From an uncultured Thermodesulfobacteriota bacterium (GTDB lineage: Bacteria; Desulfobacterota; B13-G15; RBG-16-54-18): 43,808 bases of DNA. Positions 34,741 to 37,776 of this stretch are shown one piece after another (position 1 is the stretch's first letter; every line of letters starts with the position of its first letter). The translations under genes were made by a program, and so were the position numbers. Under the pieces are notes generated by a model that searched no databases, was not told the origin of the DNA, and saw only the letters and a program-made list of their open reading frames with translations. Location: positions 2,436-46,243 of the forward strand of contig CAYWLI010000004.1 of assembly GCA_964459135.1 (NCBI GenBank), in the 5' to 3' direction.

Positions 34741-37700
34741 ATGAAGATATTCCGCTCGCATATCTTGGTGTGTGGTGGCACAGGGTGTCACTCCTCAGGA
34801 AGCGCGGAGGTAATAAAGGCCTTTGCCTTTGAGGTGGAAAAACGGGGATTAAAGGATGAGGTCCAGATCGTGGAGACGGGGTGCAATGGCTTTTGCGCCC
34901 AAGGGCCCATTGTGGTGATCTACCCTGAGGGGATCATCTACATGCAGGTCTCCGCCGAGGATGCCGCCGAGGTCATCGGGGAACACATCCTCAAAGGGAG
35001 GCCGGTGGAGCGCCTCTTGTACCGCGAGCCCGTTACCGAAGAGATCATCCCTTACATGAACGATATTCCCTTCTTCGGTCTCCAAGAGTTACGAGTGCTG
35101 CGCAACCGGGGGCTGATCGATGCTGAGCGGATAGATGAGTATATCGCCCGGGACGGGTACCTTGGGGTATCCAAGGCCCTCCTGGAGATGACTCCTGAGG
35201 AGATTATCGAGGAGGTGAAAAAGTCAGGGCTCAGGGGCAGAGGGGGAGGGGGATTCCCCACGGGCATGAAATGGCAGTTCGCCTCCCAATCGCCGGGAGA
35301 GGTGAAGTATGTCTTGTGCAACGCCGATGAAGGGGACCCTGGGGCCTTTATGGATCGAAGTGTGCTGGAGGCAGATCCTCATGCCGTTTTGGAAGGGATG
35401 ATCATCGCGGCCAGGGCCATCGGGGCACATGAAGGGTACATCTACTGCCGTGCCGAGTATCCCCTGGCGGTCCATCGCCTGAATATCGCCATCAATCAGG
35501 CGCGGGACTACGGTCTGCTGGGCGATGATATCCTCGGTTCCGGGTTCGCATTTGATTTGGAGGTCTATCAAGGGGCTGGTGCCTTCGTGTGCGGCGAGGA
35601 GACGGCGCTGATGGCCTCTATTGAAGGGCGTCGCGGCATGCCACGCCCTCGCCCCCCCTTTCCGGCCCAGCAGGGTCTCTGGCAAAAACCCACGATCCTT
35701 AATAACGTGGAGACCTATGCCAATATCGCCCAGATCATCATCCAGGGAGGGGCTTGGTACGCCGGCATCGGGAGCGAGGGTAGCAAGGGGACAAAGGTCT
35801 TTGCCCTCACCGGAGATGTCAATAACATCGGGCTGGTGGAGGTCCCCATGGGGACGACCATTGGCACTATTATCTTCGATATCGGCGGTGGCATCCCGAA
35901 AGGGAAGCGTTTCAAGTCCGCCCAGCTCGGGGGACCTTCAGGGGGGTGCATCCCGGCACAGCACCTCAACACCCCCACCGATTACGAGGCCATCACCCAG
36001 ATCGGGGCCATCATGGGATCGGGGGGCCTTATTGTCATGGATGAAGATACCTGCATGGTGGATGTGGCCCGCTTTTTTATGGACTTTTGCCAGGATGAAT
36101 CCTGCGGCAAGTGCGTCCCCTGTCGGGTGGGGACGAAGAAGATGTTGGATATTCTTACTGATATTTGTGAAGGGAGGGGCAAGGAGGGGGACATCGAGCT
36201 GCTGGAGGAGATGGCGGCCATGATCAAAGACTCGGCCCTGTGCGGATTGGGGCAGACGGCACCCAATCCGGTCCTCTCCACCATCCGCTACTTCAGAGAT
36301 GAGTATGAGGCCCACATCAGGGACAAGCGGTGTCCCGCCTCGGTATGCTCGGCCCTCTTTAAATCCCCCTGTCAGAACACCTGTCCGGTAGGGATGGATG
36401 CCCCGGCCTACATCGCCCTCATCAGGGCGAACCGCCTGGCAGATGCCTATAAGGTGTTGCTGCGGACCAACCCCTTTCCGAGCGTCTGCGGGAGGGTGTG
36501 CGACCACCAGTGTCAGACCAAGTGTCGCCGCGGGCAGCTGGACGAGCCGATCGCCATCAAGTTCCTCAAGCGGTACATCACCGACCACGCCGCAAGACCC
36601 ACAATCGAGCCGGTGCCCGTGACCAGAAAGGAACGAATCGCGGTGGTGGGAGGGGGGCCTGCGGGTCTCACCGCGGCCAGAGATCTTGCACAACGGGGGT
36701 ACAGCGTGACGGTATTTGAAGAACTCCCCCACCTGGGCGGGATGCTGCGATACGGGATACCCGAATACCGGCTCCCCCGTGCAGTCCTGGAGCGGGAGAT
36801 CGACGATATCCGGACCCTCGGGGTCCAGTTCAGGACCAACACGAGGGTGGGGAAAGATATCCCATTTAAGGATCTGCGCAAGGAGTACGATGCGCTCTAC
36901 CTGGCTGTCGGCGCCCACCAGAGCCAACGCCTGCGGATTGCGGGTGAAGAGCTCAAGGGGGTCTACGGCGGGGTGGAGTTCCTGCGGCAGATAAATCTCG
37001 GCAACGGCGTCGAGGTGGGCAGCAGGGTGGCTGTTGTCGGGGGTGGAAACTCCGCCATCGATGCAGCCCGGTCGGCCCTGCGCAAGGGCGCCCAGGACGT
37101 CGTCATCCTCTATCGGAGACTGAGACAGGATATGCCCGCCCAGGCCGAGGAAGTGGCGGCGGCCGAAGAGGAGGGTGTCAAGATACATTTTCTCGTGAAC
37201 CCCTCCGAGGTCATCGGCGTCAAGGATAAGGTCGTAGGGGTGAGGTGTCAGCGCATGCGGTTGGGTGTATTCGATGCCAGTGGGAGGCGCCGCCCTGAGC
37301 CCATTGAGGGATCGGAATTTGTGCTCGATGTGGATATGCTTATCGCTGCCGTCGGGCAGGTCCCTGATTGCTCTTTCCTGCCCAAGGACATCCCCGTCAC
37401 GAAAGGGAATACCATTGAGGTCAACGGTGGGGGAGAGACGCAGACCCCTGTAGCAGGGGTTTTTGCCGGTGGTGATGCAGTCACCGGAGCGGCCACTGTT
37501 ATTAAGGCCATCGCTGCCGGCAAGGAGGCCGCTCGCCAAATCGATGCCTCCATTCGGGAGCAGAACGGGGAGGCGCCATACCGGGGGCCTGAGGAGGCGT
37601 GGATCGATATCCCCCAGACCATCGATGAGGAGGCTCAGGAGCAGCCTCAGACCCTGATGCCCGAAATAGAGGGGAATAAGCGAATAGGCTCCTTTGGGGA

Positions 37701-37776
37701 GGTGGAGTTGGGTTATCCCGAAGAGGAGGCCCTCAAAGAATCAATGCGGTGTCTTCGCTGTGACATGGAACTCTAA
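34741..37776 (+). CDS. NuoF/HydB-like FMN/NAD(H) subunit fused to a GltD-like FAD/NAD(P)H iron-sulfur module (1011 aa)
   Basis: N-terminal Trx-like 2Fe-2S (LVCGGTGCH...CNGFCAQGP). NuoF core (GLRGRGGGGFPTGMKW, NADEGDPGAFMDR, ESCGKCVPCRVGT...CGLGQTA). Then GltD-type CQNTCPVGMDAPAYI, GRVCDHQCQTKCRR, ERIAVVGGGPAGLTAARDL, VAVVGGGNSAIDAAR and FAGGDAVTG. Confidence 0.88.
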   Translation: MKIFRSHILVCGGTGCHSSGSAEVIKAFAFEVEKRGLKDEVQIVETGCNGFCAQGPIVVIYPEGIIYMQVSAEDAAEVIGEHILKGRPVERLLYREPVTEEIIPYMNDIPFFGLQELRVLRNRGLIDAERIDEYIARDGYLGVSKALLEMTPEEIIEEVKKSGLRGRGGGGFPTGMKWQFASQSPGEVKYVLCNADEGDPGAFMDRSVLEADPHAVLEGMIIAARAIGAHEGYIYCRAEYPLAVHRLNIAINQARDYGLLGDDILGSGFAFDLEVYQGAGAFVCGEETALMASIEGRRGMPRPRPPFPAQQGLWQKPTILNNVETYANIAQIIIQGGAWYAGIGSEGSKGTKVFALTGDVNNIGLVEVPMGTTIGTIIFDIGGGIPKGKRFKSAQLGGPSGGCIPAQHLNTPTDYEAITQIGAIMGSGGLIVMDEDTCMVDVARFFMDFCQDESCGKCVPCRVGTKKMLDILTDICEGRGKEGDIELLEEMAAMIKDSALCGLGQTAPNPVLSTIRYFRDEYEAHIRDKRCPASVCSALFKSPCQNTCPVGMDAPAYIALIRANRLADAYKVLLRTNPFPSVCGRVCDHQCQTKCRRGQLDEPIAIKFLKRYITDHAARPTIEPVPVTRKERIAVVGGGPAGLTAARDLAQRGYSVTVFEELPHLGGMLRYGIPEYRLPRAVLEREIDDIRTLGVQFRTNTRVGKDIPFKDLRKEYDALYLAVGAHQSQRLRIAGEELKGVYGGVEFLRQINLGNGVEVGSRVAVVGGGNSAIDAARSALRKGAQDVVILYRRLRQDMPAQAEEVAAAEEEGVKIHFLVNPSEVIGVKDKVVGVRCQRMRLGVFDASGRRRPEPIEGSEFVLDVDMLIAAVGQVPDCSFLPKDIPVTKGNTIEVNGGGETQTPVAGVFAGGDAVTGAATVIKAIAAGKEAARQIDASIREQNGEAPYRGPEEAWIDIPQTIDEEAQEQPQTLMPEIEGNKRIGSFGEVELGYPEEEALKESMRCLRCDMEL

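Follow-up and report, generated by a model that had tools for sequence, protein, structure and literature searches.

The operon and its fused flavoprotein

Here, we describe a four-gene operon encoding a selenocysteine formate dehydrogenase (FDH), predicted to be cytoplasmic, on a 43,808-nucleotide stretch of contig CAYWLI010000004.1 from an uncultured Thermodesulfobacteriota bacterium (the window, by which we mean the whole of the stretch analysed), and relate one of its gene products to known enzymes. All four genes lie on the forward strand, separated by gaps of approximately 30 nucleotides, and encode a NuoE/HydC-like subunit (BfuC; 33799..34305), a small thioredoxin (Trx)-fold protein (34336..34710), a fusion of a BfuB-type (HydB/NuoF-like) flavoprotein with a GltD-type module (34741..37776) and the catalytic subunit FdhA (37809..40511). 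The fusion, which is the main subject of this work, is a single polypeptide of 1011 amino acids read from an ATG start without internal stop.

Domain order in the fusion is as originally predicted: Pfam, NCBIfam and alignments to PDB sequences agree on a Trx-like [2Fe-2S] domain, a NuoF core with its N3 cluster and a GltD module, in this sequence. The first domain (residues 1-95; 34741..35025), corresponding to the B5 [2Fe-2S] (or Zn) site of the Bfu family, carries the ligands C11, C16, C48 and C52 and is matched by 2Fe-2S_thioredx in Pfam (residues 5-80) and fdxn_Clost in NCBIfam (16-93). The NuoF core (residues 129-526; 35125..36318; TIGR01959 nuoF_fam, E 2e-148) comprises the Pfam domains Complex1_51K (159-330), SLBB (353-402) and NADH_4Fe-4S (441-525). 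It holds a site for flavin mononucleotide (FMN) and NAD(H), with the motifs G163LRGRGGGGF (the FMN loop), C193NADEGDPG and GAGAFVCGEETAL at 278-290, together with the N3 [4Fe-4S] cluster, named B1 in the Bfu family, whose four cysteines (C455, C458, C461 and C501) are those of a Bfu-type B1 site. The GltD part opens with a Fer4_20 domain (residues 532-618; 36334..36594) bearing two [4Fe-4S] sites, with ligands C544, C548, C587, C591, C595 and K610; these are completed by C1004 and C1007 of the C-terminal tail (37561..37773), whose RC1004LRC1007 motif provides two ligands of the exit cluster (C544, C595, C1004 and C1007). Between them are folds of the GltD/NfnL type (36634..37521; Pyr_redox_2 632-927) for flavin adenine dinucleotide (FAD; G637-G642, within VVGGGPAG at 635-642) and NADP(H) (G767-A772, within VVGGGNSAIDAAR at 765-777, then Y791RR). 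Further NCBIfam matches are to PRK12771 (494-1007) and gltA (540-936). The signatures of a GltD/NfnL-type module are therefore all present, namely two [4Fe-4S] sites in Fer4_20, an FAD GxGxxG and an NADPH GGGNxAxDxAR...YRR. The tail aligns with that of a 658-residue paralogue from the same window, and with NfnA/StnC to about residue 567.

Conservation was assessed by aligning 55 full-length sequences that span many phyla (the window protein and 54 closer relatives); all such figures given here are based on this alignment. The FMN loop, NADE..PG, CGEE, the N3 cysteines, the FAD GxGxxG and the NADPH GGGNxA...YRR are invariant or nearly so, and both the N3 cysteines and the tail CxxC (C1004, C1007) are found in 55/55. 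The main exception is the N-terminal cluster, whose cysteines are kept in 45-54 of the 55; other departures, at A195, C583, K610, N770 and R777, concern one to six sequences each. A loss of dinucleotide-binding residues, named in the original prediction as grounds for abandoning it, was not seen, and the pattern indicates strong purifying selection on two intact flavin/nucleotide modules. Degeneration into a pseudo-enzyme could be ruled out for the window protein and its 54 closer relatives, whose FMN loops are not degenerate. Since the same ORF of ~1010-1060 amino acids recurs in 80 independent assemblies, the fusion is not an artefact, and an assembly chimera or frameshift was likewise ruled out. 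We also noted nine more divergent full-length NuoF-GltD fusions (P0137, P0139, P0160, P0166, P0180, P0195, P0203, P0211 and P0262; 35-47% identity over the junction) with degenerate FMN loops and NADE motifs and intact GltD modules; judged from these motifs, their NuoF part looks like a scaffold only. In three of them (P0160, P0166 and P0211), the C-terminus is extended by an additional Cys-rich domain, in which CxxCxxCxxxCP motifs occur.

The partners of the fusion are consistent with an enzyme of Bfu descent. The NuoE-like protein carries the ligands of the C1 [2Fe-2S] cluster (C94, C99, C135 and C139; Pfam 2Fe-2S_thioredx, E 4e-48), and in the PDB it is most similar to C subunits from bifurcating enzymes (7t2r_C, 7q4v_C and 8a6t_C). 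FdhA, preceded by a GAGGGAGG ribosome-binding site, joins a NuoG-like N-terminus to a catalytic domain of the Mo/W-bis(pyranopterin guanine dinucleotide) type, so that the BfuC and BfuA neighbours characteristic of the Bfu family are both represented. Domain scans and structure alignments found no GltD insert in FdhA, and the operon contains no ferredoxin gene. The reading frame of FdhA passes through one UGA (TGA at 38871..38873, forward strand; context HCARL-U-HSVTVAGL), presumed to encode selenocysteine, and homology is kept in frame before and after it: what follows the UGA matches TIGR01591 by itself with 694 bits, above cut-off, and the full length aligns with alpha subunits of NAD-dependent FDH (7e5z_A, 6tg9_A). 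As expected of a selenocysteine (Sec) FDH alpha subunit, the UGA falls at the catalytic Sec/Cys position of an Fdh-alpha fold. It is directly followed by a hairpin resembling a selenocysteine insertion sequence (SECIS; 38874..38916, forward strand), with an 8-bp GC-rich stem and a GUCUU loop and its start 11 nucleotides past the last base of the UGA; with a z-score of only -1.5 the hairpin is not statistically distinctive, and as a SECIS element it is suggestive.

The small protein of 124 amino acids is HndB/BfuD-like, with weak Pfam and NCBIfam matches. Its GTC38GIASG, C70 and C74 provide three of the four cysteines of a Trx-like [2Fe-2S] site, a pattern kept in most orthologues and wholly lost in those of L039, L059, L073 and L079, and its status as a 2Fe-2S protein is not established. 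Thus, the gene neighbourhood proposed earlier holds for the NuoE-like gene before the fusion and the FDH catalytic gene after it, but not for a small 2Fe-2S protein.

Exchange of the ferredoxin-like domain

The point at which the two halves of the fusion meet is sharply defined. In a PDB sequence search, residues 1-542 aligned to residues 1-542 of bifurcating NiFe-HydB (7t2r_B, 851 bits), with nearly as good matches to A. woodii HydB, StnB, T. kivui HydB and NfnB, whereas the non-bifurcating FdsB and complex I NuoF scored approximately half (345-416 vs 643-851 bits for the bifurcating HydB-type proteins). HydB homology stops at about residue 542, where Fer4_20 and Pyr_redox_2 take over, and residues 541-1008 align to residues 101-567 of NfnA (9bov_A), which are its GltD insert, as well as to NfnB/NfnL. 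In line with the original prediction, the GltD module thus occupies exactly the position of the two-cluster ferredoxin-like domain in HydB/HndC/NfnB, and the B3/B4 domain by which BfuB is defined (PMC9304861; PMC12018979) is absent.

Immediately before this point lies the putative Zn-binding B2 loop (H525-x5-C531-x4-C536; 36313..36348, forward strand). Its stretch, DEYEAHIRDKRCPASVC, is near-identical to that of bifurcating HydB, StnB and NfnB, and its three recognised ligands (H525, C531 and C536) are invariant in 55/55, with Zn assigned by homology (PMC10021017; PMC11829005). In HydB, StnB and NfnB the same loop joins the four-helix bundle that holds B1 to the B3/B4 ferredoxin-like domain (PMC10021017; PMC11829005). 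The function of the latter domain has been addressed by cryo-electron microscopy of T. sibiricus NfnABC, in which ferredoxin sits between the C subunit's C-terminal domain and the B3/B4 domain, and by mutation of a B4 ligand, upon which most bifurcating activity was lost (PMC12018979); it has also been described as the site of ferredoxin binding and reduction in Nfn-Bfu in PMC11829005. Since this ferredoxin-docking domain is the very part that has been replaced, canonical ferredoxin-linked bifurcation is not expected. By sequence, then, the fusion is a bifurcating-type core retained up to the hinge, minus precisely the ferredoxin-reducing domain.

Character of the GltD module

The structural relatives closest to the GltD part, and those against which it scores best, are found in NfnA of C. 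saccharolyticus and T. sibiricus and in StnC of S. ovata, in each case as the NADPH-entry module, so that the comparison with Stn proposed at the outset was apt. Its NADPH fold matches those of five structurally characterised NADPH-dependent homologues (9bov_A, 9n5u_A, 8oh5_C, 5jca_L and 4ylf_B), and this identity of motifs points to a predicted preference for NADPH over NADH at the GltD site. K610 aligns with K170 of 9bov_A, a ligand of the A7 cluster together with C108, C147 and C151. A Lys-ligated cluster and a C-terminal CxxC tail are common to the fusion and the NfnA/StnC modules.

Bifurcating NfnB and non-bifurcating ferredoxin:NADP+ oxidoreductases of the same fold were distinguished in a 2025 study, in which a conserved Arg (Arg333 of Pfu NfnL), an extended N-terminus and an upstream nfnA gene marked the bifurcating NfnB (PMC12221290). 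In the fusion, Gln801 takes the place of Arg333, at a position that is variable in the family (most frequently A, Q, I or D), and no NfnA/NfnS-type gene is present in the operon; the extended N-terminus is inapplicable to a fused module. On account of Gln801 and the lack of an nfnA-like gene, the FAD looks like a simple two-electron/one-electron converter for NADP(H) rather than a second bifurcating flavin. Possession of two flavins, read earlier as possible bifurcation hardware, does not in itself make the protein bifurcating, and the Lys-ligated cluster is a trait of the Nfn-Bfu NADPH port, which does not bifurcate.

Short relatives and the proposed route to B1

A second, shorter protein of related build is encoded in the window itself. 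This 658-residue paralogue (17710..19686) consists of the N3-cluster domain of NuoF and a GltD module and is 40% identical to residues 412-1007 of the fusion, collinear across the junction. It is product X of a nuo operon (14889..29678) with the order nuoA, B, CD, X, G, H, I, J, (K), L, M, N, in which neither a nuoE gene nor a NuoF FMN domain is found. The short form here replaces NuoE/NuoF, which suggests an NADP(H)-linked complex I.

Short N3-GltD proteins have no FMN domain, and no NuoE gene accompanies them in the loci examined. A protein with a NuoG-type N-terminus follows them in five of six contexts, the sixth (L090) ending at the contig end. The partners are NuoG in another nuo operon of the same gene order (L089), an 805-residue FdhA-like protein (L086/L087; 7001-11411 in L086), the [FeFe]-hydrogenase HydA (L088; 1330-4862), and a HoxU-like protein that precedes a protein with a GltB (Glu_synthase) domain (L091; 1-4129). 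The pair of HydA and short N3-GltD is probably the 'glutamate-synthase-linked' group A2 of HydDB, and the short forms as a whole appear, from such contexts, to be a general NADPH entry module that would fit any NuoG-type subunit.

The short forms are informative for the wiring of the long ones. The first N3 cysteine and the first Fer4_20 cysteine are 89 residues apart in all of the long forms (55/55); in the short forms, 21 of which were compared, the spacing is 86-92. The Zn ligands, invariant in the long forms, are lost in the short. Because the short forms are without FMN and NuoE, their NADPH-FAD reaches the partner only through the N3 cluster. By homology, we infer that the GltD clusters of the long form are in electron-transfer contact with B1.

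Distribution and exchange of partners

Scanning species-representative genomes with a junction-spanning alignment of four sequences identified the fusion in at least 80 species-level genomes from about ten phyla, all of them metagenome-assembled genomes (MAGs). The match covers at least 93% of the query in all 80 loci, and most of the 80 ORFs are full length (~1010-1060 amino acids), the others ending at contig ends. Represented are Syntrophales/Smithella, Desulfobacterales, Desulfarculia, Bacillota, Chloroflexota, Armatimonadota, Atribacteria, Sumerlaeota, Planctomycetota, Firestonebacteria, Brevinematales and Bacteroidia; Syntrophaceae MAGs come nearest, with 70-78% identity (the best 78% over the junction). 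The protein database likewise contains many proteins of the same architecture, at ~70% identity, from Syntrophales MAGs and under generic names, and a junction query against representatives at 50% identity returned many full-length fusions as well as many shorter proteins. Cluster look-ups returned only MAG-derived proteins, with no isolate among the close relatives. Hence, the fusion is not peculiar to this FDH, as had first been supposed, but belongs to a widespread family already noted in silico for hydrogenases.

A NuoE-like gene lies within ~1.3 kb upstream in 64/80 loci, mostly adjacent or with a small gene between, and many of the 16 loci without one run into contig ends. Partner classes were assigned by tblastn with the window proteins, with Pfam checks on ten examples. 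The most frequent partner was the [FeFe]-hydrogenase HydA (24/80 loci). FdhA was found in 12/80 (five adjacent downstream, five upstream, two distal), a catalytically empty NuoG-like protein in 8/80, and a tandem of a second NuoE, a canonical HydB and HydA in 5/80; no partner was present within the flank in 7/80, and in 24/80 it was unclassified or lost at contig ends. The hydrogenase-linked form, which resembles the 'sub-type I' discussed below, thus makes up the largest share of the 80 homologous loci. Within a Syntrophales cluster, fusions that are 89-90% identical to each other pair with FdhA, with HydA or with nothing. Such swapping of partners among near-identical fusions indicates that the BC-GltD unit behaves as a generic pyridine-nucleotide module on which FDH or hydrogenase would be exchanged.

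Three arrangements deserve separate mention. In L014 (8733 onward) the fusion is followed by a HydA-type gene and then an FdhA-like gene, and its sequence is 89% identical to that of the fusion in L016, where FdhA is the only partner. On four Syntrophales contigs (L001-L004; for example, L001 6962-11057) the NuoE-like, small and NuoF-GltD genes form a triplet by themselves, genes for FdhA, HydA or a NuoG-like protein being absent within 8 kb, and are flanked by genes for acyl-CoA dehydrogenase, thiolase and enoyl-CoA hydratase/3-hydroxyacyl-CoA dehydrogenase. The tandem operons (L041, L045, L049, L073 and L079) begin with NuoE, HATPase, small protein and NuoF-GltD and continue with a second NuoE, a NuoF of HydB length, whose match is confined to residues 1-536, and a product whose N-terminus is of the NuoG type; both kinds of B subunit therefore co-occur in one cluster.

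Neighbouring genes in the window

Upstream of the operon, on the same strand (29798..33578), Pfam and NCBIfam identify a set of regulatory genes in the order DRTGG, HATPase, sensory-type HydA-like, DRTGG, PHP and HATPase, and the same set stands ahead of the fusion in many loci, whatever the partner. The HydA-like protein (30608..31957; 449 amino acids) has an altered H-cluster P1 motif (SSLCP for TSCCP) and a C-terminal 'FeS' domain. Its gene stands upstream of an FDH operon, not a hydrogenase operon, and from its sequence type and location the protein may be an H2 sensor controlling formate metabolism. Directly 3′ of FdhA, and convergent with it, genes for protoporphyrinogen oxidase (40520..42022) and ferrochelatase (41950..42882) occupy 40520..42882 of the reverse strand. 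No FdhD, FdhE, MobA or selenocysteine-machinery gene was identified in the window outside 1..2141, 12685..13003 and 42883..43808, two ORFs having no Pfam match, and promoter and terminator scans returned counts near the shuffled expectation.

Proposed mechanism and alternatives

We propose that the fusion would serve as the flavoprotein (BfuB/HydB-type) subunit of the four-gene FDH (BfuC, small HndB-like protein, BfuB-GltD and FdhA), its ferredoxin-reducing C-terminal domain having been swapped for an NADP(H)-FAD-2x[4Fe-4S] module of the kind that forms the NADPH port of Stn/Nfn-Bfu. Electrons would pass from the Sec-Mo/W site along the Fe-S chain of FdhA to B1, and from there either to FMN and NAD(H) or, by way of the GltD cluster pair, to FAD and NADP(H), making B1 a hub between three two-electron sites (Sec-Mo/W, FMN and FAD). 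The complex would interconvert formate/CO2 with both NAD(H) and NADP(H), would not need free ferredoxin, and would be intrinsically capable of transferring electrons from NADPH to NAD+, that is, of acting as a transhydrogenase. We hold that an FDH derived from Bfu enzymes, deprived of its ferredoxin arm and tying formate/CO2 to both nucleotide pools, has about an even chance of being the correct description. Of the two functions raised in the original prediction, a dual port for NAD(H) and NADP(H) built into the FDH fits better than bifurcation, given the N3-only route of the short forms.

Several considerations weigh against this hub model. An ungated path from NADPH to NAD+ would dissipate the NADPH/NADH disequilibrium, which argues for gating or coupling of some kind. 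Features of the Bfu enzymes have been kept, namely the Zn loop, the N-terminal cluster in most homologues and a Bfu-type C subunit, and it is the short forms, acting as a simple wire, that are without the Zn ligands while the long forms keep them; the conformational gating of Bfu enzymes could thus still be in use. The catalytically empty NuoG-like BfuA of eight loci is also hard to explain if the GltD module contacts B1 directly, and the literature searched holds no assay of any enzyme of this architecture.

The strongest of the competing explanations, which we nevertheless regard as unlikely, is that the GltD module takes over from B3/B4 in function as well as in place, with NADP(H) substituting for ferredoxin in an obligatorily coupled reaction. 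The mobile C1 cluster of the NuoE-like subunit would then carry a low-potential electron from the B1-FMN-C1 site to the GltD clusters, FAD and NADP+, giving 2 formate + NAD+ + NADP+ <-> 2 CO2 + NADH + NADPH, or, in a syntroph, confurcation of NADH and NADPH to formate. That the module can take low-potential single electrons follows from the stand-alone GltD-like proteins, which are ferredoxin:NADP+ oxidoreductases (PMC12221290). Such a role would be congruent with the exact positional swap right after the conserved Zn hinge, with Zn-loop ligands that are invariant in the long forms and lost in the short, with a C subunit most like those of bifurcating enzymes and with the physiological cost of an ungated leak from NADPH to NAD+. 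Reduced ferredoxin is scarce in syntrophs, a circumstance that we count in favour of obligatory coupling, together with the abundance of the fusion in Syntrophales and its location beside beta-oxidation genes. On the other hand, the short forms show that the junction geometry allows transfer from GltD to N3, which would short-circuit a gated arm if the same held here; the reduction of NAD+ and NADP+ by formate or H2 is exergonic, so that bifurcation would be unnecessary in that direction; and the gene neighbourhood offers no evident source of NADPH.

Somewhat more doubtful still is a ferredoxin-dependent enzyme of the Stn/Nfn kind in which merely the NADPH port has been relocated. GltD would pass mid-potential electrons from NADPH to B1, as NfnA does in Stn, and the B1-FMN-C1 site would still bifurcate, with formate as an extra donor or acceptor and ferredoxin being reduced elsewhere (at C1, the N-terminal cluster, the small subunit or the FdhA clusters). 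The completeness of the B1-FMN-C1 site speaks for this, as do the loci with a catalytically empty NuoG-like BfuA, which resemble a permuted StnABC, the stand-alone triplets, whose substrates are limited to NAD(H), NADP(H) and possibly ferredoxin, and the tandem loci, which join the fusion with canonical HydB and HydA. However, the sole experimentally defined ferredoxin site of the family is the interface between the C subunit's C-terminal domain and B3/B4, at which mutation of a B4 ligand is so damaging (PMC12018979); here, B3/B4 are absent and the operon brings no ferredoxin gene. Finally, NfnB-like bifurcation at the GltD FAD, in which NADPH would be split as in NfnSL with one electron taking the path of the two [4Fe-4S] clusters and the second reaching a [2Fe-2S] site in the N-terminal domain or the small protein, was raised as a possibility for the hydrogenase-linked form (PMC11406978) and can draw on homology of the module to NfnL/NfnB (363 bits to 4ylf_B, 331 bits to 5jca_L), but was rejected on the Arg333 and gene-context criteria and is highly improbable, the more so as the cluster ligand is a Lys, as in the non-bifurcating port of Nfn-Bfu, instead of the Glu of NfnL, and the small protein has three cysteines, with some orthologues having none of them.

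Implications

Bfu-type enzymes (HydABC, Stn/NfnABC and Fdh-Bfu) are central to anaerobic energy metabolism, and the mechanism of bifurcation in them is debated. In this context, the present family offers a case from nature of a ferredoxin-reducing domain exchanged for an NADP(H) flavin module, with the remaining bifurcating core unchanged and strictly conserved. This raises the question of whether a pyridine nucleotide now serves B1-FMN-C1 as its third partner or whether the enzyme is once more a plain dehydrogenase with two cofactors. The abundance in Syntrophales, the interchange of FDH and hydrogenase and the beta-oxidation neighbours bear on how NADH is re-oxidised to formate or H2 in syntrophs. 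Should the GltD module indeed act in place of B3/B4, the complex would be an obligately coupled, ferredoxin-free FDH confurcating NADH and NADPH (or, with HydA, the equivalent hydrogenase), by which beta-oxidising syntrophs could place electrons from NADH on formate or H2 with no supply of reduced ferredoxin, and the family would amount to a natural experiment on where the low-potential branch exits the Bfu core.

Comparison with known systems

The closest system on record is the 'sub-type I' BfuB of group A3 [FeFe]-hydrogenase clusters, reported in 2024 from Hydrogenedentota and other phyla in silico only (PMC11406978). As in the fusion, DPD_II/Fer4_20 (2x[4Fe-4S]) and an FAD/NAD(P) domain at the C-terminus stand in these proteins where B3/B4 would be; BfuC and, in many cases, a small BfuD are encoded next to them, and regulators of the sensory-hydrogenase and kinase types are near. 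The operon described here differs in that its partner is Sec-FdhA and not HydA, so that it does not form a hydrogenase BfuABC(D) cluster. FDH partners, stand-alone modules and short N3-GltD relatives are not mentioned in that report (PMC11406978).

The Stn/Nfn-Bfu transhydrogenases of Sporomusa ovata, Caldicellulosiruptor saccharolyticus and Thermococcus sibiricus (8oh5, 9bov and 9n5u) are built from the same modules, with a C subunit resembling NuoE, FMN/NAD(H) on a BfuB core, FAD/NADPH and a Lys-ligated cluster on a GltD module, and an A subunit of the NuoG/Fdh-like type. In alignments, StnB (8oh5_B) is matched by residues 15-541 of the fusion, and the GltD insert of StnC/NfnA by residues 541-1008. 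Their arrangement is different, as the A subunit carries GltD as an insert behind its N-terminal [2Fe-2S] domain, B3/B4 remain on the B subunit and the Fdh-like domain is without pterin, whereas here the B subunit bears GltD where B3/B4 would be, with a complete Sec-FdhA as the A subunit.

Among FDH complexes, the bifurcating Fdh-Bfu (FdhF2-HylABC of Gottschalkia acidurici, and the clades of Schut et al. 2022) likewise couple an FDH to an NAD(H) module of the BfuBC type. In contrast to the enzyme described here, they have a canonical HylB/BfuB with two C-terminal [4Fe-4S] clusters, use ferredoxin and have no FAD/NADP(H) module. The NAD+-dependent FdsABG/FDH1 of Rhodobacter capsulatus (6tg9), Cupriavidus necator (6vw7) and Methylorubrum extorquens (7e5z) have the same set-up of a NuoE-like, a NuoF-like and an alpha subunit, and FdhA aligns over its full length to their FdsA/FDH1 alpha subunits (762-816 bits). 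FdsB-type subunits lack the B2-B5 sites, according to the same survey (Schut et al. 2022), and, unlike the fusion, all are devoid of GltD.

Electron passage between NADPH and a Sec-FdhA through an NADP-binding Fe-S flavoprotein of the GltD-like type is also known from the NADP-dependent Se/W FDH of Moorella thermoacetica (FdhAB), and a search on FdhB yielded nothing about its domains that goes beyond PMC5736913. The fusion is set apart from both Moorella FdhAB and the beta subunits of the short N3-GltD type by its FMN/NAD(H) domain, its N-terminal cluster and its partner of the NuoE type, although the latter beta subunits, found beside FdhA-like, HydA or NuoG genes, have the junction in common with it.

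That such fusions have been encountered before is hinted at by a HydDB rule, 'GltD but not NuoF', and they go unmentioned in the accessible part of the 2022 survey of the Bfu family. In the literature, we found neither a description nor an assay of an FDH-linked NuoF-GltD fusion, and no biochemical study of the hydrogenase-linked 'sub-type I BfuB', the sole form described. The FDH-linked form is thus a new variant within an architecture so far noted in silico for hydrogenases, one that brings together the bifurcating-type core of HydB, the GltD module of Stn/Nfn-Bfu and a complete Sec-FdhA.

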